From sequence record NC_018854.1: a stretch of DNA of 64,000 nt; one strand, written 5' to 3'. Shown one piece after another: positions 5,157 through 35,454 of the stretch. Under the pieces are notes generated by a model that saw only the letters and a list, made by a program, of their open reading frames with translations, made no database searches and was not told the origin of the DNA. Source of the stretch: Escherichia phage ECBP1. Every line of letters starts with the position of its first letter. Positions within the stretch are counted from its first letter, which is position 1. The position numbers and the translations under genes were made by a program.

Positions 5157-5209
5157 TTAATGGCTGCTCCGCAGCTTTTGGTTATTAATCACATTTAGGA
5201 GAATAAGCG

Positions 5210-7454: not shown

Positions 7455-7461
7455 TAAACTA

Positions 7462-7495
7462 GCCTCATTCCTTCGGGAGTGAGGCATATTTTTTG
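7462..7495 (+). terminator. intrinsic terminator
   Basis: gcctcattcc-ttcg-ggagtgaggc followed by atatttttt. Confidence 0.65.
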
Positions 7496-12894: not shown

Positions 12895-12921
12895 AAATAG
12901 CCCAGCATAGTTGGGCTATTT
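12895..12921 (+). terminator. hairpin, possible terminator
   Basis: 10-bp stem aaatagccca / tgggctattt with a 7-nt loop; no strong T-tract. Confidence 0.35.
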
Positions 12922-15327: not shown

Positions 15328-15333
15328 ACCTAA

Positions 15334-18702: not shown

Positions 18703-20751
18703 ATGAAAATCGAACTGATTTCTATCATCGCACTGGCAGTTGACAGTCGTAACCTTACATTGTGGAAGCCCGATGGCTCCACGATTGTATATCCTCAGAG
18801 CGACCCACGGGTTGCTCGCATTGTATCTGAAGCTCAAACTAAAGGTCTGGGAACTACCAAAGACCAAATAGAAGTAAACATCGCACCAGAAGTAAACCTG
18901 CGTACTGAATATCTGGAAGCAGAGAAGAACACTAACGGATTCGTCCGTTTCTTCAAGGTAGCTAAAGCTAAACTCAAAGAGTTCTTTCAGGATGGTACAG
19001 GTGTTCCACCTGACCGTATTATTTCTGATATTAAGCTGGGTAATCCTACTAAGACACTGGTGTCTAAAGCTATGGATACCTTTCTGGCTGTACAGGCCAA
19101 TGAACCAGAAGTAACTGTAACAGATGGTTGTTATGACAAACGTGACAATCTGATGTGGGTTACTGGCTGGGACAAAGACCATAACCATCCTGCACTGGTT
19201 CGTTTTATTAACGACGTAATGGGTTGTGGGTATGAATATACTAACACCATGCTCAAACAGGAATGGCCTGTTGCAGTTCGTGCAGTATCTGATGATGAAA
19301 TGGGTGAGTTTGCTAAACAAGCCGAACACATCAAAGGGGTTCATGTTGTATTCACCAGTCGTAAACATACCCCACCACCTTACATTGAAGTAACTAAAGT
19401 TACGAACCAGGATAAGCTGGCTGCTGCCTCGGAGAAACTAGCTGCATTGGGTGCTATTAGTACTGATGACGCTAACTTCCACACCGATGTGAAGGAAGAT
19501 GAAGTGGTTGTTGCTGTTACCAACAATGGGGTTATCCCCGGAGTTGAGAACCTGCAACGTCACTTACGTCAGTCTGCCAAGCTGAAAGACTACAAGGGCT
19601 TTACTAAGTTCCTTGAACGTCTGGCTCCGGTTATTAAAGACCGTCTGCACTCAGTAGAAGACCTGATGAAGTTCATGGAAACTGCTGAACTGCCTATTGC
19701 CGATGATGGTTCAATCCTGTTCCTCAAACGCCTTAAGTCTAGTGGTATAGAAAACGGTAAACGTGTATTCGTTGACTGTCACTCGGGTAACATTCGTCAA
19801 TGGGTAGGCTGTAAAGTGCAGGTACGCGAAGACCTGGTAGACCCTGACCGTCGTCAGGATTGCTCTAACGGTCTGCACGTAGCATCCATGAGCTATCTAC
19901 GTGGCTTCGGTGGTAATGTGACCATCCTTGGTAAAGTAGCACCGGAAGATGTATTTGCTGTTCCTCAGTACAGCACCAATAAAATGCGTGTATCTGCATA
20001 TCATATTATTGCTGAACTACCGGAAGAGGAACGTAATAATGTTAATAATGGTATCTACCTGTCTAAGACAGAAGTAGGTAAGAAATTGCTTAATGATGCC
20101 ATCGTTGGGAACCATAGCTCACCTACCACACTTATTATGGTTGGGGGTCATTATGGTACTAACCTCAAATACACTAATCTCACATCTGGTTCTGTAGAAC
20201 AATTCCGTACAGTTGCTAGCAAAGAAGCACTGAACATGGAAGAGTCACTGAATGAAGCTGTAGCTGCTGAACCAGTGAAGGCTACTGACCTTAAACCTGT
20301 TATTAAGAAGGCTCCTACTGTGAAAGAACAAATCCAGGAACTGGTCAAAGAGTTCCTTACTGCAACAACCCCAGAAGATAAGTTAGCTGCTGCTGACCTT
20401 CTGGTAGAACTGCGTGGTAAAGCTCGTAAGCCTTGGGCTGCATTCGATGTGGGTAATGATGTAGTAGCTAAGATTGCTGATGTACGTGCTACCTATACAG
20501 CTAAGCCTATTGGTAAACCTAAAGCTGTTAAGCAGGATAAGACAGTTAAACCTACTAAATCTAAGCCTGCTATTAATAGTACTAATGCCAACATCATCAG
20601 AGGTTATCTAGCAGATAGTGGTATGTCTGATTATCAGAAAGCCCACTCCATTCATGACCTGAAACGTGCAGCTAAGAAGTCTTATGCTGCTATGGGTCTT
20701 ACTGAAGAAGAGTGCAAAGCCATTGATAAGCTGAAGCACCACCTTAAGTAA
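18703..20751 (+). CDS. rIIB-like protein (assignment by position only)
   Basis: 682 aa directly downstream of the rIIA-like gene; K/A-rich C-terminal tail. Confidence 0.4.
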   Translation: MKIELISIIALAVDSRNLTLWKPDGSTIVYPQSDPRVARIVSEAQTKGLGTTKDQIEVNIAPEVNLRTEYLEAEKNTNGFVRFFKVAKAKLKEFFQDGTGVPPDRIISDIKLGNPTKTLVSKAMDTFLAVQANEPEVTVTDGCYDKRDNLMWVTGWDKDHNHPALVRFINDVMGCGYEYTNTMLKQEWPVAVRAVSDDEMGEFAKQAEHIKGVHVVFTSRKHTPPPYIEVTKVTNQDKLAAASEKLAALGAISTDDANFHTDVKEDEVVVAVTNNGVIPGVENLQRHLRQSAKLKDYKGFTKFLERLAPVIKDRLHSVEDLMKFMETAELPIADDGSILFLKRLKSSGIENGKRVFVDCHSGNIRQWVGCKVQVREDLVDPDRRQDCSNGLHVASMSYLRGFGGNVTILGKVAPEDVFAVPQYSTNKMRVSAYHIIAELPEEERNNVNNGIYLSKTEVGKKLLNDAIVGNHSSPTTLIMVGGHYGTNLKYTNLTSGSVEQFRTVASKEALNMEESLNEAVAAEPVKATDLKPVIKKAPTVKEQIQELVKEFLTATTPEDKLAAADLLVELRGKARKPWAAFDVGNDVVAKIADVRATYTAKPIGKPKAVKQDKTVKPTKSKPAINSTNANIIRGYLADSGMSDYQKAHSIHDLKRAAKKSYAAMGLTEEECKAIDKLKHHLK

Positions 20752-20763
20752 TAGCCTGTTCAA

Positions 20764-20794
20764 ATAGCCTCACTTATAATAAAGTGAGGCTATC
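20764..20794. promoter_or_regulatory. perfect 31-bp palindrome centred on TATAAT
   Basis: atagcctcactttat-a-ataaagtgaggctat read directly; sits between the rIIB-like stop and the HTH gene. Confidence 0.4.
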
Positions 20795-20813
20795 TTTGAA
20801 GAGGAAATAAGCT

Positions 20814-21209
20814 ATGTCTAAAGTATTCAGAAGTAATCGCAAAGCAACTGATGAAGACATCATTCGTATGAATGCTGTTGGTCTGTCCCTCGCAACTATC
20901 GCTAAGACGTTGGGGGTTCACCCAACCACAGTCACTTTGCGATTGCGTTCTCTAAACATTGAACCAGCCGACACACGTCGGACGTTCATGGAAAACGTAT
21001 TACGACCTTTACCAACCCATGTGGCTGATTGGCTGTCAGAACAAGTTGGTCCTGCTTATGAGATTCGCTCATATGTAAGAGACTTGATTCTGGAGGCATA
21101 TAATAATCGCCACCTTAACCAAGAGAGTGAGCATGACAAGTTCATCCGTTTGTACGCTGGCAAATACGGAAGCCTGGTTCCGGAAAGCAGTAGCAAATCC
21201 AACAAGTAA
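20814..21209 (+). CDS. helix-turn-helix DNA-binding protein
   Basis: LSLATIAKTLGVHPTTVTLRLRSL resembles an HTH. Confidence 0.45.
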   Translation: MSKVFRSNRKATDEDIIRMNAVGLSLATIAKTLGVHPTTVTLRLRSLNIEPADTRRTFMENVLRPLPTHVADWLSEQVGPAYEIRSYVRDLILEAYNNRHLNQESEHDKFIRLYAGKYGSLVPESSSKSNK

Positions 21210-26846: not shown

Positions 26847-26911
26847 TGAAGATAACCAACAACCATGATGTATCACTGGCCCTGGCTGTATGGCTATTGC
26901 ATGACGAGTAA
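26846..26911 (+). pseudogene. 21-codon diverged duplicate of the 5' end of the nuclease gene at 27412
   Basis: Translates MKITNNHDVSLALAVWLLHDE versus MKLTNKHDVSLALAVWLVTDD of the intact gene. Confidence 0.45.
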
Positions 26912-26917
26912 CTAATT

Positions 26918-27415
26918 ATGAAACAGAGGATTGCCCATGACAGGCTTTTACAGCTTGTTAGTTATGACCCTATTTCCGGGATTTTTACTCGTAGGAATAC
27001 CGGAAAGGTATCTGGTTACCTAATGAAGAGTGGTTACGTTCAACTCCGTGTGGATAGTGTGTTGTACTATGGGCATATCCTTGCATGGTTCTATGTGCAC
27101 GGTGTATGGCCTACGGATAGAATTGACCATAAGGACAATATTCGCCATCACAACTGGATAGATAACCTCAGAGAAGCGACCCACAAGCAGAATAACCAGA
27201 GTGCTGTTTTATCTAAAACAAACACATCTGGATTTAAGGGGGTATCCTTTTCAAAGAATTTAGGTAAATACAGAGCAACTATTTGGGTTAACAGTAAACC
27301 AATTACATTAGGTTTTACAGATGACCCAAGAGAAGCTGCTGTTCTCTATGATGAAGCTGCTATAACTCATTATGGTGAGTTTGCTAAAACTAATAAGCAA
27401 TTGGGACTGTTATGA
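26918..27415 (+). mobile_element. HNH-AP2 homing endonuclease gene
   Basis: HNH-like HKDNIRHHNWIDNLREATHKQN followed by AP2-like GFKGVSFSKNLGKYRATI...FTDDPREAAVLYDEAAITHYGEFA. Confidence 0.65.
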
Positions 27416-28392
27416 AACTTACCAACAAACACGACGTTAGTCTTGCACTAGCTGTATGGCTTGTAACGGATGATTATGATTATGTAGACAATCCTAAGTA
27501 TCTGTCTGTTACTACCTTGCTTAAGCCCATTAAGCAAATAGTCATGAAGCATCGTGTAGATCTTAGTGACCAGTCAATTGATGTTATGGATTTCGTCTCC
27601 ACATCAATGGGTACTGGTTTACATGATTCTATCGAGAAGGCCTGGAAGCTGGGTCATAAGACTGCATTGAAAAAGTTGGGTTATCCTCAACGAGTAATTG
27701 ATGCAGTAGTCATTAACCCAACCAAAGCAGACTTTGATGCTAACCCTGACCTTATCCCAATCTACATTGAACAGCGTGGAACCAGGATAGTTAAGGGTTG
27801 GACTATCGGTGGTAAGTTCGACATCGTAACAGAAGGTCTGCTGCAGGACTTTAAGTCTACCTCAACCTATTCCTGGGTTGCTGGTTCCCGTGATGATGAA
27901 CATAAGATGCAAGGCAGCTTGTATCGTTGGATTCACAACGACATCATTACCGAAGATGTAATCCGTATTAACTACATCTTCACTGACTTCATGAAACACA
28001 TGGCTAATAGCAATCCGAACTATCCTGCTAATCGTATTATGCATAAGGATATTCCGTTGCTATCTGTCGAGAAAACTGAACGTTGGGTAGAAGAGAAGAT
28101 TCACCTCATTGAAAAGTACTGGAATGCACCTGAAGAGGAAATTCCTGAATGTACTGATGAGGAGTTGTGGCGAACAGAGCCACAGTTCAAATACTTCTCT
28201 GATGCTTCTAAGGTAGATGTACCTGGAGCCAGAAGTACCAAAAAATTTGACGATATGGCATCTGCTCGTATCTTCATGGCTGAAAAAGGTGGCAAGGGTG
28301 CTATCAAGGTCGTGGAGGGGCAGGTTAAGCGTTGTCTATACTGCCCTGTCGCGTCCATTTGCAAACAAAGAGAGAGATATTTTCCATCATGA
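27412..28392 (+). CDS. PD-(D/E)XK nuclease with C-terminal Cys cluster (Cas4/RecB-like)
   Basis: GGKFDIVTEGLLQDFK (D...E.K pattern) and C-terminal RCLYCPVASIC. Confidence 0.5.
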   Translation: MKLTNKHDVSLALAVWLVTDDYDYVDNPKYLSVTTLLKPIKQIVMKHRVDLSDQSIDVMDFVSTSMGTGLHDSIEKAWKLGHKTALKKLGYPQRVIDAVVINPTKADFDANPDLIPIYIEQRGTRIVKGWTIGGKFDIVTEGLLQDFKSTSTYSWVAGSRDDEHKMQGSLYRWIHNDIITEDVIRINYIFTDFMKHMANSNPNYPANRIMHKDIPLLSVEKTERWVEEKIHLIEKYWNAPEEEIPECTDEELWRTEPQFKYFSDASKVDVPGARSTKKFDDMASARIFMAEKGGKGAIKVVEGQVKRCLYCPVASICKQRERYFPS

Positions 28393-30542
28393 GTATTGAC
28401 CTGACCGGAGTCACTCACCACCCTGCAATTGAAGAAATTGTAGACGTGCTGTGTAACAAGACACAAAACAACGACAGAGGATTCTTCCGTGTCGAAGTAG
28501 CCTACTTCCTGGCTAAAATGGCATCCTGCATGGGTGCAACCATTGTCACTAAAGACCGTGGTGACTTACCAGTCAACATTTACGCTATGGCATTAGCAAC
28601 GTCTGGCTTCGGTAAAGGTCACTCGGTAAATATTATTGAAGACGGCTTCATGACTGGCTTCCGTAAACGTTTTATGGAAGACACCATGCCCGTCATTGCA
28701 AATGACCGTTTATGGAAGATTGCTAACGAACGTGCTGCTCGACAAGGTACAGACCAGAATGATGAGTTTGATAAAGTCGAAGCAGAGTATAAACGTGCTG
28801 GAGCATATCCGTTTACGTTTGACTCTGGTACTCCACCAGCAGTTAAACAGCTACGACATAAGCTGTTAATGGCTGGGTGTGGTTCAATCAACCTACAGAT
28901 TGATGAAATTGGTTCAAACCTGTTGGCTAACACGGATGTATTAACTCTGTTCCTGGAATTATATGACCAGGGTAAGGTTAAACAGAAGTTAACCAAGAAC
29001 ACTGCTGAAAGTGTTCGTGGTGAAGAACTGGATGGTAAGACTCCAGCTAACCTGTTGCTGTTTGGCACGCCAAGTAAGCTACTAGATGGTGGTCAGACCG
29101 AAGACCAGTTCTATGACTTTCTGGATACAGGGTATGCACGTCGTTGCTTATTTGCCATTGGGCATTTAGATAAACGAGCACATGCAACAATGTCCCCAGA
29201 AGAAATCTACCGTAACCTGATTAAGCAGGATAACGTACAGTCTCTGGGTAAGTGGGCTAATCACTTCCACAGTCTGGCTGATCCAAACTTGTTCGGCTTT
29301 AAGATGGTTGTAGAAGATGCTGTGGGTATTGCTCTGATTACTTACAAGATCGATTGTGAGAAACAAGCAGAAGCTATGGCTGACCACGAAGAAATTCGTA
29401 AGGCTGAAATCTCCCACCGTTACTTTAAAGCTCTTAAGCTGGCTGGAGCACTGGCATTTGTTGACCAAAGTTCATTCATTGAAATGTCTCATCTTAAACA
29501 AGCAATCTTGCTTGTAGAAGAATCCGGGGCAGCATTCCAGGGTATTCTCAATCGTGAGAAAGCCTATGTGAAGCTGGCTAAGTATATCGCTTCTGTAGGT
29601 AAAGAAGTGACTCATGCTGACTTACTGGAGTCGTTGCCGTTCTATAAGAGTGGCAATGCAGCTCGTAATGAGATGATGACTCTTGCTACAGCATGGGGAT
29701 ACAAACAGCACATCATCATTAAGAAAACTTTTAATGAAGGTATTGAGTTCTTCCGTGGAGAGACTCTGAAAGAGACTGACATCAATGAGATGATAGTGGC
29801 CTATAGTGATAGCTTTGCTTATGACTACATTGGTGAACGTGTACCGTTCGACCAGTTGCATGTATTAACCCAAGCTCCCGGTATGCACTGGGTAAACCAT
29901 CACATGAAGAACGGGCATCGTTCCGAAGAGAACGTTATTCCAGGATTTAACATGATTGTTATTGACTGTGATGGTGGAGTACCACTGCATACGTGCCATG
30001 AACTGATGAAGGAATATAAGTTCATGACCTATACCACTAAACGTCATTCTGATGAAGAGAACCGCTTCCGACTGATTATTCCAATGAACTATGAGTTACA
30101 CCTCGACACTGAGGAATACAAAGAGTTTATGAATAACGTTATGTCTTGGCTACCGTTCGAAACGGATGAATCTGCTAACCAGCGAGCCAAGAAATGGATG
30201 TCCTGTGAGACTGGTTCCTATCATTACAATCTTGAAGCAAATCTGTTGGACGTGCGTGACTTTATTCCTCGTACTAGTAAGAACGAGCAGTTCCAGAACC
30301 AGATGAAGGAAGTACAGTCGTTGGATAATCTGGAGCGTTGGTTCGCTAGTCGTATTGCTACCGGTAATCGTAATAATCAAATGATTAAGTACGCACTGGC
30401 ATTGGTTGACAGTGGTTGGGATTTTGCCCAAGTACAGCAAGCCGTCCACTCATTCAATAAGAAACTGGCTAATCCATTACCAGATGATGAATTGAATGCA
30501 ACCGTAATGGTCACCGTGGCTAAACGCTTCGCTGGCAAATAA
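28389..30542 (+). CDS. DNA primase-like replication protein (N4 gp43-like by position)
   Basis: Start set at the ATG overlapping the upstream stop (track 28332); VIDCDGG acidic motif; size and synteny. Confidence 0.45.
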   Translation: MSIDLTGVTHHPAIEEIVDVLCNKTQNNDRGFFRVEVAYFLAKMASCMGATIVTKDRGDLPVNIYAMALATSGFGKGHSVNIIEDGFMTGFRKRFMEDTMPVIANDRLWKIANERAARQGTDQNDEFDKVEAEYKRAGAYPFTFDSGTPPAVKQLRHKLLMAGCGSINLQIDEIGSNLLANTDVLTLFLELYDQGKVKQKLTKNTAESVRGEELDGKTPANLLLFGTPSKLLDGGQTEDQFYDFLDTGYARRCLFAIGHLDKRAHATMSPEEIYRNLIKQDNVQSLGKWANHFHSLADPNLFGFKMVVEDAVGIALITYKIDCEKQAEAMADHEEIRKAEISHRYFKALKLAGALAFVDQSSFIEMSHLKQAILLVEESGAAFQGILNREKAYVKLAKYIASVGKEVTHADLLESLPFYKSGNAARNEMMTLATAWGYKQHIIIKKTFNEGIEFFRGETLKETDINEMIVAYSDSFAYDYIGERVPFDQLHVLTQAPGMHWVNHHMKNGHRSEENVIPGFNMIVIDCDGGVPLHTCHELMKEYKFMTYTTKRHSDEENRFRLIIPMNYELHLDTEEYKEFMNNVMSWLPFETDESANQRAKKWMSCETGSYHYNLEANLLDVRDFIPRTSKNEQFQNQMKEVQSLDNLERWFASRIATGNRNNQMIKYALALVDSGWDFAQVQQAVHSFNKKLANPLPDDELNATVMVTVAKRFAGK

Positions 30543-30598
30543 GCAAACAGGAGTCTTTCTTTGGTTTGAAGGACTCCTAAATTAAATGAGGAAAAATA

Positions 30599-33592: not shown

Positions 33593-34010
33593 TATCGTGA
33601 AGGGTTCTGTTAGAATCCTTTGAGATAGGAACTCCTATCATAACCTTTCTTATCTTAATCTTTGCCGTATGGCACTGACGCTAGGGTTTATGCCCATCCG
33701 TCAGGTAGACTATTTTAAGAATGGGTTATCACAGAAAATGTAAAGCAACATTCGGGTTAATCAATGGCCTCTCCCTATAGGGGCCATTTCTGAATGATAG
33801 GCTATATCCCAAAGGTTAGTATCTTTGGGATAAGGCTTCAGATCCCTTATCAAACTAACCTCTCAATGTTGAGCATTTTAATCACATAAGCCCCTATATG
33901 GGCTGGGTTAAATGTCGGATAGCATAGCTACCTACAGCATCGAATTGTTAGGTCTTACATGCAACATAGGGTATAAAGGGAGGACTCGTCCCCTCCCTCC
34001 TATTATAATG

Positions 34011-34080
34011 GTCGAGGTAGCACGTAGGCATGTGCAGATGGTCGCTACTTCTCTCGCTGGTTCGAATCCAGCCCCCGACC
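34011..34080 (+). other. tRNA-like element (T-arm and acceptor present; no canonical anticodon arm)
   Basis: T-arm gctgg-ttcgaat-ccagc; 6 of 7 acceptor pairs; D-arm-like gcac-gtaggcat-gtgc; preceded by TATAAT. Confidence 0.3.
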
Positions 34081-34371
34081 TATTGACATCCTATCAATGA
34101 GTACATTAAGCTAACGTGCGGAGGTTTACACTATAGCTGGTGTAGGTGGAGAAGACGGCAGGGTAGCTACCTGTGCTTAGTGTACTCTTTGATAGTTTTC
34201 GTAAGCGATTATGCGGTTTTTTAGAAACGAACCAATAACATAAATGCAAACGATGATGTTGTTCTGATGGCAGCCTAATAAGCCAAGCGTCAGTCGGGAG
34301 TGAGTCGTCCTGATTATCAAACGACCATGGAGTGTCCTCGTCCGTGTATTAGAAACGGGGAGTTAATCAAT

Positions 34372-34450
34372 GGTGTGTGATAGCTCAAATAGGTAGAGCG
34401 TGAGGCTACAGTGCTGAATGGTTTGTGGGTTCGATTCCCACCCATGCCTA
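34372..34450 (+). other. tRNA-like element (D-arm and T-arm present; anticodon arm not foldable)
   Basis: D-arm tagctcaaataggtagagc; T-arm gtggg-ttcgatt-cccac; acceptor 6 of 7 with wrong spacing. Confidence 0.3.
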
Positions 34451-34516
34451 CAGTCCAGACGATATCTGAGTGACTATAAAAACAGATGGAGCCAGGTGGA
34501 ATCCCTGGCAATTAAT

Positions 34517-35153: not shown

Positions 35154-35227
35154 GCCCACTTAGCTTAGACGGGGAAAGCAACCGACTAATAATCGGAAGG
35201 TCACTGGTTCAAATCCAGTAGTGGGTA
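35154..35227 (+). tRNA. tRNA, canonical 74-nt cloverleaf; anticodon reads AAU (Ile) by standard numbering, unusual A34
   Basis: Acceptor gcccact / agtgggt; D-arm gctt-agacgggga-aagc; anticodon arm accga-ctaataa-tcgga; T-arm actgg-ttcaaat-ccagt. Confidence 0.6.
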
Positions 35228-35454
35228 CTTATTAATAGAGAACATAGTCCTGATTGCATTGCACTCTAAAGACAATGCCGGTGAGACAGTCCGGCACTCT
35301 AATTATTGAAAACATACCTAACGGTGTGAGTATGAGCAGACTATAATGCTCAATTACAGTTAACTATTATCGGACTATCAATCCTGTTTGCTGGTACAAG
35401 CACCGGTGGTAATAGTTAACTGGCCTAGCCTCGTTAGCTGCGTTAAAGCTACTA

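Follow-up and report, generated by a model that had tools for sequence, protein, structure and literature searches.

A conserved RNA stem-loop of the sense strand between rIIB and gp35 in N4-like phages: a probably leaky, terminator-like hairpin whose lower stem may partly mask the gp35 ribosome-binding site

The junction between the rIIB-like gene and the gene of the gp35 homologue, a helix-turn-helix (HTH) protein, carries a conserved, single-copy and position-specific stem-loop in N4-like phages, and it is the sense-strand RNA that forms it. In the stretch of coliphage DNA analysed here (64 kb, hereafter the window), the stem-loop appears as a perfect inverted repeat that is extended by a predicted lower stem into the ribosome-binding site of gp35. 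We give somewhat better than even chances to the reading that the element acts as a leaky, terminator-like 3' hairpin of the rIIA-rIIB message, the lower stem of which partly masks the gp35 ribosome-binding site.

The window comes from a G7C/Bp4-like N4-type coliphage (Gamaleyavirus, Schitoviridae), and the 5 kb around the site share 97% identity with Escherichia phages PD38 and Bp4. The genes in the neighbourhood are homologues of N4 gp33 (rIIA), gp34 (rIIB), gp35, gp36, gp37 (helicase) and gp39 (DNA polymerase). The region surveyed at the rIIB-gp35 junction has the sequence taagTAATAGcctgttcaaATAGCCTCACTTataataAAGTGAGGCTATctttgaagaggaaataagctATG, and its features, together with the two flanking genes, are as follows.

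18703-20751, plus strand: rIIB-like gene, N4 gp34 homologue, 682 aa (ORF; PHROG RIIB match, E 5e-214; annotation of relatives)
20755-20763, plus strand: predicted 5' strand of the lower stem (CCU G UUCAA), the anti-Shine-Dalgarno side (fold, inverted repeat, flank complementarity against permuted controls, outer-helix covariation)
20764-20775, plus strand: 5' arm of the core hairpin, ATAGCCTCACTT (inverted repeat, 12 nt, 100% complementary; covarying helix)
20776-20781, plus strand: hairpin loop ATAATA (sequence; TATAAT spans 20775-20780)
20782-20793, plus strand: 3' arm of the core hairpin, AAGTGAGGCTAT (inverted repeat, fold, covariation)
20791-20798, plus strand: U-rich tail UAUCUUUG (sequence; terminator-type score -19.7)
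20796-20804, plus strand: predicted 3' strand of the lower stem (UUGAA G AGG), which includes the AGG of the gp35 Shine-Dalgarno sequence (predicted fold)
20814-21209, plus strand: gp35 homologue, a 131-aa HTH protein (ORF; weak Pfam HTH_38/HTH_23 matches; phrog_6377; N4 gp35 annotation; AlphaFold2 model)

The rIIB stop codon, TAA at 20749-20751, is followed by an in-frame TAG, and the Shine-Dalgarno sequence of gp35 is GAGG at 20801-20804. The ORF after gp35 (NTP pyrophosphohydrolase, GTG at 21127) overlaps the gp35 gene by 83 nt if its long start is used. The AlphaFold2 model of gp35 (pLDDT 71) is all-alpha with a three-helix HTH at the N-terminus, and searches of Pfam, NCBIfam and PDB sequences, together with AlphaFold2/Foldseek, returned only this generic N-terminal HTH; the best match of the model to such domains has an E of 0.26. 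Homologues of gp35 are found in about 158 phage records, with no LUZ7 or LIT1 homologue among the 60 matches listed of these. Over some 400 proteins, three motifs are near-invariant (NRK, the HTH segment HPTTVTLRL, and PADTRRTFME), and the proteins of the family with a checkable source all come from N4-like genomes. Elsewhere in the window, ARAGORN finds three tRNA genes on the plus strand (34010-34081, 34373-34451 and 35154-35228; Ala-CGC, Cys-ACA and Ile-AAT), two of them with unusual A34 anticodons, in a long non-coding stretch before the gene of the virion RNA polymerase (vRNAP).

The inverted repeat lies where the earlier note had placed it, between the rIIB-like stop and the ATG of the HTH gene at 20814. 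It is indeed perfect and reads atagcctcactt-ataata-aagtgaggctat, but it consists of 12-nt arms around a 6-nt loop and measures 30 bp, ending at 20793, instead of the 31 bp with 15-bp arms around a single base that had been described; the former end coordinate of 20794 and the longer arms go back to an extra t in the string as it had been written down ('cactttat' for the true 'cacttat'). The hexamer TATAAT, on which the repeat was said to be centred, is present at 20775-20780, where it is made up of the final base of the 5' arm and five loop bases, but it sits one base away from the dyad centre. The loop is A/T-rich, and its sequence is not kept in relatives. The inverted repeat is far beyond chance: no other perfect hairpin of the 64-kb window combines a stem of at least 12 bp with a loop of at most 12 nt, and composition-preserving shuffles (100 of them) yield a mean of 0.03.

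As RNA, the 71-nt region folds to -28.7 kcal/mol (z = -6.6; 0 of 200 shuffles fold as well), and the core hairpin by itself reaches about -16.5 kcal/mol. The stem starts 12 nt past the rIIB TAA stop. The flanks CCTGTTCAA (20755-20763) and TTGAAGAGG (20796-20804) lengthen the helix to about 20 bp, since both the minimum free energy and the centroid structures place 8 added pairs (5 + 3 bp) beneath a 2-nt asymmetric bulge; the 5' strand of this lower stem begins 3 nt beyond the rIIB stop codon. A scan against Rfam brought no family to its gathering threshold, the best scores being 15-20 bits against thresholds of 31-88 (E at least 0.4).

We fetched 52 loci with gp35 homologues of 47-100% identity, and in nearly all of them a strong hairpin precedes the ATG by 12-24 nt, so that the spacing from hairpin to ATG is tight, whereas the distance from stop codon to hairpin is variable. 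Within Gamaleyavirus, the outer stem occurs in the compensatory variants AGCC/GGCT, GGCC/GGCC and GCCC/GGGT, the last with a G·U pair. The N4 counterpart of the hairpin is GTAGCTCCAGT-tgaaatat-ACTGGAGCTAT, the majority of other lineages have (A/G)ATACCTCTAGT...ACTAGAGGTAT followed by CTTTTAT, and loci L033, L037, L041 and L053 have unrelated GC-rich stems with 5-7 T/U at the equivalent spot. The sequence of the 3' arm and tail is also kept in four loci that are devoid of the 5' arm (L020, L021, L048 and L049). As to the conservation of the palindrome in relatives, which had been proposed as a check, a hairpin is found at the same spot across many Schitoviridae lineages and shows covariation; its stem sequence is partly conserved, but varies and is in some lineages unrelated.

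The covariation was followed in 33 distinct sequences. Here the core helix is 97% paired, changes on both sides of a pair are seen in 7 of the 8 core pairs and in 3 of the 3 outer pairs, and the pairing falls to 39-57% when the partners are slid against each other. Paired cells amount to 91%, against 79% in shuffles, and 0 of 500 shuffles reach the observed value, a significance that is inflated by the phylogenetic relatedness of the sequences, as is that of the other covariation and permutation tests. At least seven lineages with differing flank sequences retain the pairing of the flanks. The core and outer helices predicted by MAFFT and RNAalifold from 25 sequences, with compensatory changes in 10 of 15 pairs, are in independent agreement with this test. 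Furthermore, a covariance model of the element scores the window copy at 74.9 bits, and finds one copy each in the window, in N4 (first 45 kb), in Erwinia phage Frozen (first 50 kb) and in every related locus, with no second copy in the window or in these parts of N4 and Frozen. Each copy immediately precedes the ribosome-binding site of the gp35 homologue; in three metagenomic relatives (L010-L012, positions 904-1503), an HNH gene (Pfam HNH_3, E 1e-18) is inserted between hairpin and gp35, and the conserved hairpin, which remains with the 3' end of rIIB, precedes the ribosome-binding site of the HNH gene. The gp35 gene of these relatives retains a smaller hairpin, ATCGGTAT-gta-ATACTGAT, and the same TATATCTTTGAAGAGG leader. 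The window has an HNH_3 homing-endonuclease gene of its own (165 aa, 26918-27415, plus strand), situated directly before a 326-aa gene (27412-28392); the 71 nt that precede it (region 26847-27415) resemble a diverged duplicate of the start of the 326-aa gene (...HDVSLALAVWL...), which suggests an insertion scar.

The strand on which selection acts can be read from the non-Watson-Crick cells of the helix, among which G·U occurs 54 times and A·C 9 times. G·U is a pair in plus-strand RNA, and a mismatch in DNA or in a minus-strand transcript. Selection therefore acts on the sense-strand RNA, and this strand specificity argues against a cruciform as well as against a symmetric protein-binding site. 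A minus-strand element was also considered and rejected: the same asymmetry favours the plus strand, and there are no minus-strand genes nearby.

Judged from its sequence, the hairpin is probably terminator-like and leaky. Like intrinsic and class I terminators, it presents on the coding strand a stable stem just past a stop codon, rich in C on its 5' side and in G on its 3' side like the other terminators of the window, and it combines a U-rich stretch 3' of the stem with a matching A-run upstream, both runs being conserved in relatives. Class I terminators, hairpins followed by a U-run, are read by T7-type RNA polymerases, for example at T7 Tphi. The GC-rich stems of L033, L037, L041 and L053, with their 5-7 U, make classical terminators at the equivalent spot, and the orthologous spot is labelled 'terminator' in two independent GenBank records, SP5M and JWDelta, although the JWDelta label (locus L055, 2473-2502) sits on an alternative downstream hairpin with no U-run after it. 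A further point in favour of a terminator is the arrangement in L010-L012, in which the hairpin remained with the end of rIIB after the HNH insertion. In the window, the U-tract after the stem is CUUUG, where a typical terminator has a run of at least 4-5 U; with the three terminal A-U pairs assigned to the tail, UAUCUUUG contains 5 U in 8 nt, of which only 3 are consecutive, and the relatives have AUCUUUUAU or AUUUUUUAU at the equivalent positions, with 4-7 U. A score of the d'Aubenton-Carafa type comes to -19.7, against +10 to +46 for the canonical terminators of the window, and a consensus terminator scan of the window lists the neighbouring terminators at 15332 and 21593 and leaves the hairpin unlisted. 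In view of the tail, the scan and the score, termination may be weak or absent, for which reason we call it leaky. The option of a strong terminator hairpin in the earlier note thus survives as a terminator-like RNA stem-loop, and the tail and score leave 'strong' unsupported. The element also departs from intrinsic terminators in its build, having a 12-bp stem and a 6-nt A/U loop where the others of the window have stems of 7-10 bp and tetraloops, and in that its pairing goes on beneath the U-rich stretch and reaches the next ribosome-binding site. The literature searched yielded no transcript ends of N4- or G7C-like phages for this region; only LUZ7 maps were found.

Several other hairpins of the window can be set beside it. 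After the gene of the large subunit of RNAPII, a canonical terminator at 7461-7487 (plus strand) reads GCCTCATTCC-TTCG-GGAGTGAGGC and then ATATTTTTTG; its stem shares GCCTCA...TGAGGC with the hairpin studied here, a resemblance that speaks for the terminator reading, and the two may be related by descent. A look-alike at 12895-12921 (plus strand), 10 nt past a stop codon, reads AAATAGCCCA-gcatagt-TGGGCTATTT followed by GAGAAG, and has the same AAATAGCC...GGCTAT-TTGA design, an equally weak U-tract and a terminator-type score of -14. Long hairpins with large loops and no U-run are found at 30549-30578 and 33805-33832 (plus strand), the former with an N4 orthologue between gp43 and gp44 (locus L056, about 29470-29505). 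The hairpins at 12895, 20764, 30549 and 33805 form a second intergenic class, distinct from the terminators with a tetraloop and a U-run.

The second part of the preferred reading concerns the lower stem. In the predicted fold of the read-through RNA, 6 of the 8 positions 20798-20805 have an unpaired probability of about 0, and this segment opens once the RNA starts at or after 20764; with a start at or after 20776, the mean unpaired probability of the Shine-Dalgarno sequence is 0.53-0.89 as against 0.26. Over 28 loci, the flanks pair with -8.9 kcal/mol when matched and with -5.9 ± 0.44 kcal/mol when permuted, and 0 of 2000 permutations reach the observed value. In most lineages, the spacer from stop to ATG folds as one long hairpin that closes over the Shine-Dalgarno sequence. 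Over the fixed positions -14 to -6, the target could not be told apart from other intergenic regions; the measure used instead was anchored on the Shine-Dalgarno sequence, and it gives a mean unpaired probability of 0.27 in 36 lineages, compared with 0.55 in 28 intergenic controls from the window and N4 (Mann-Whitney p = 5e-5), with values of at most 0.1 in 12 of the 36 lineages and in 2 of the 28 controls. The mean for this phage is 0.43, inside the range of the control intergenic regions. According to these models, the masking of the gp35 Shine-Dalgarno sequence is only partial in this phage, and is strong in other lineages. Hairpins that sequester a ribosome-binding site are known from T4 gene e (lysozyme), soc, gene 49 and I-TevI, where the long transcripts are translationally silent. 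The element resembles them in that an upstream segment pairs with the downstream Shine-Dalgarno sequence, that shorter RNAs are open and that the pairing covaries; it differs in its partial masking, in its terminator-like apex and in an internal promoter that is only putative.

If masking is given all the weight, the element becomes a pure translational leader, in which the spacer RNA holds the gp35 ribosome-binding site closed at the foot of the hairpin and has no role in termination; it would be opened by coupling to rIIB, or possibly be bound by a protein, gp35 itself perhaps, as a translational operator. The folding of the whole spacer as one hairpin with the Shine-Dalgarno sequence at its base in most lineages, the stronger occlusion than in control intergenic regions, the tight spacing of hairpin and ATG next to a variable distance from the stop, the single copy and the partly conserved sequence all speak for such a leader. 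So does an Achromobacter 3' arm that can pair downstream around the Shine-Dalgarno sequence, namely as GGCATCT-TTTAGG-AGATGCC in L020 and GGTATCT-TTTACGG-AGATACC in L021. However, the conserved U-run and the upstream A-run are not needed by a clamp alone, the lineages with the most classical terminators (L033, L037, L041 and L053) are devoid of anti-Shine-Dalgarno pairing, and the masking in this window is partial. We therefore regard a purely translational leader as rather unlikely.

A side observation concerns the same downstream pairing. In the Achromobacter/Pseudomonas inbricus clade (L018-L021, about 1470-1500; JWDelta L055, 2473-2502), an alternative hairpin, GGTATCT-TTTATGG-AGATACC, pairs the 3' arm downstream and puts the Shine-Dalgarno sequence in or beside the loop. 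The alternative and the main hairpin are mutually exclusive in L018 and L019, and the alternative occurs alone in L020 and L021.

Processing by RNase III is an improbable account. The host enzyme would cut the interrupted helix of about 20 bp and so separate the rIIB and gp35 messages, leaving a protective hairpin on the rIIB mRNA and freeing the gp35 ribosome-binding site. Sites of this kind are known from the intergenic regions of phage T7 and from the lambda N leader; like these, the element is an intergenic, asymmetrically interrupted helix of about 20 bp, placed so that a cut would leave the upstream message with a 3' hairpin and free a downstream ribosome-binding site, and it is set apart by its conserved U-run and by a cleavage that is putative here. 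The dimensions are suitable (a 12-bp upper stem, a 2-nt asymmetric bulge and a lower stem of 5 + 3 bp), the lower stem covaries, and a weak U-tract would be less of a problem. On the other hand, such a site has no sequence signature that could be tested, the lower stems of the relatives vary widely in length and internal loops, the conserved U-run is left unexplained, and the literature searched contains no published RNase III processing in N4-like phages.

A promoter in or near the hairpin, which the earlier note had also offered, is more doubtful still, and we assign it only a small probability. It could be a sigma-70 promoter with its -10 element in the loop, from which transcripts would begin in the 3' arm and thus without the masking arm, as from the late promoters of T4 genes e and soc, or a middle promoter of the N4 RNAPII in the A/T-rich tail UAUCUUUGA. 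The -10 hexamer TATAAT is perfect, RNAs that begin at or after 20776 have the more open Shine-Dalgarno sequence given above, and the 3' arm and tail are kept in the few lineages without the 5' arm. The N4 RNAPII promoters are described as minimal A/T-rich elements that extend from -7 to +2 (PMC4496689), and the LUZ7 middle promoters bear a hairpin with a 3-4 nt loop about 15 bp upstream of a G start (PMC9163698). Against this stand a best -35 element, TAGCCT, that matches at 3 of 6 positions and is not usable, a promoter scan of the window that made no call at the hairpin, and a hexamer that is not conserved, being TGTAAT in the close relatives L003, L006 and L009, GAAATAT in N4 and other A/T-rich loops elsewhere. 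Enrichment of GAGGCTATCTTTGAAG and of TATCTTT was sought in the window, and none was found, for TATCTTT in the intergenic regions in particular; as the element is moreover single-copy in each genome, it belongs neither to a class of promoters or terminators nor to a multi-site operator. The GenBank record of N4 contains no promoter features.

Two kinds of hairpin promoter were examined and rejected. The window does contain early promoters of the virion polymerase, GCTCCGC-N4-TWTGG in short inverted repeats on the plus strand at 613-628, 1453-1468 and 5166-5181, three copies where zero are expected by chance; these sites match the N4-type vRNAP early promoter hairpins predicted for Klebsiella phage KP8 (PMC6950046). 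An N4 vRNAP early promoter needs a 5-7 bp stem, a 3-nt loop and the motif, whereas the element has a 12-bp stem, a 6-nt loop and no motif. A middle promoter of the LUZ7 type was rejected on geometry, and a start about 15 bp downstream, as in LUZ7, would here remove the Shine-Dalgarno sequence. The element is thus like the N4 vRNAP early and the LUZ7 middle promoters (PMC4496689; PMC9163698) in being an inverted repeat upstream of a gene in an N4-like phage, and unlike them in that theirs are small hairpins with loops of 3 nt and 3-4 nt, respectively, and that the element is selected on RNA pairing.

The remaining option of the earlier note, an operator for the downstream HTH protein, would have a gp35 dimer bind the double-stranded palindrome and control the gene that encodes it. 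In its favour, a perfect dyad immediately precedes an HTH gene, the centres of the inner half-sites CACTT-N6-AAGTG lie about 11 bp apart, as would be typical of dimeric HTH proteins, and part of the stem sequence is common to many lineages. However, the HTH region of gp35 is near-invariant in all lineages (NRKA-D-DIIR-N-VGLSL-TIA--LG-HPTT-T-RL), including the recognition helix HPTTVTLRL, and so is PADTRRTFME, while the stems vary, with CCTCACTT in the window, CTCCAGT in N4, CCTCTAGT in most lineages and unrelated sequences in at least six lineages. Neither a second half-site nor a second dyad is found in the window or in two other genomes, and the gp35 model matches only the generic HTH domains mentioned above. 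The invariant helix facing differing stems, together with the lack of any other half-site or dyad copy, therefore leaves the operator poorly supported; in addition, G·U is tolerated and A·C is not, an asymmetry that would be meaningless for double-stranded DNA. We consider an operator very improbable.

The leaky terminator-like hairpin with a partly masking lower stem would work as follows. When rIIA and rIIB are transcribed as part of a middle-gene message, the hairpin of 12 bp with a 6-nt loop is expected to form right after the rIIB stop. Together with the tail UAUCUUUG, the hairpin would act as a leaky factor-independent terminator or as a pause signal, and it may protect the 3' end of the rIIA-rIIB message. 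If the polymerase reads through, the helix would grow downward by 8 pairs: CCUGUUCAA, from 3 nt past the stop, would pair with UUGAAGAGG and make part of the gp35 Shine-Dalgarno sequence inaccessible, so that translation of gp35 from read-through RNA would be damped. Since the 5' strand of the lower stem lies 3 nt past the rIIB stop, a ribosome that terminates there would be expected to melt the lower stem, and gp35 translation may thereby be restored, a putative structural form of translational coupling.

A more far-reaching reading, which we put forward as tentative and think well short of an even chance, is that the element is a Schitoviridae-wide, single-copy cis-regulatory leader RNA, without a listing among RNA families, that gates the expression of gp35. 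A terminator-like apex may then stand atop a lower stem that locks the gp35 ribosome-binding site; candidates for opening this lock would be ribosomes that reach the end of rIIB, RNase III, and gp35 itself through its leader. If true, this would give a conserved and uncharacterised regulator of N4-like phages a dedicated expression gate.

Nothing in these results is categorically new, the spot has already been annotated as 'terminator' in relatives, and the current view of phage gene regulation is unchanged. For annotation, we recommend that the element be entered as an RNA stem-loop or putative leaky terminator, and not as an operator or promoter, and the covariance model could be used to mark it in further genomes. 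Transcription in N4-like phages relies on three RNA polymerases, and maps of the middle transcription units, terminators and post-transcriptional controls of these phages are poor. In this context, the hairpin marks a boundary between the rIIA-rIIB genes and the block of replication genes, and it points to a controlled, probably low, expression of gp35.
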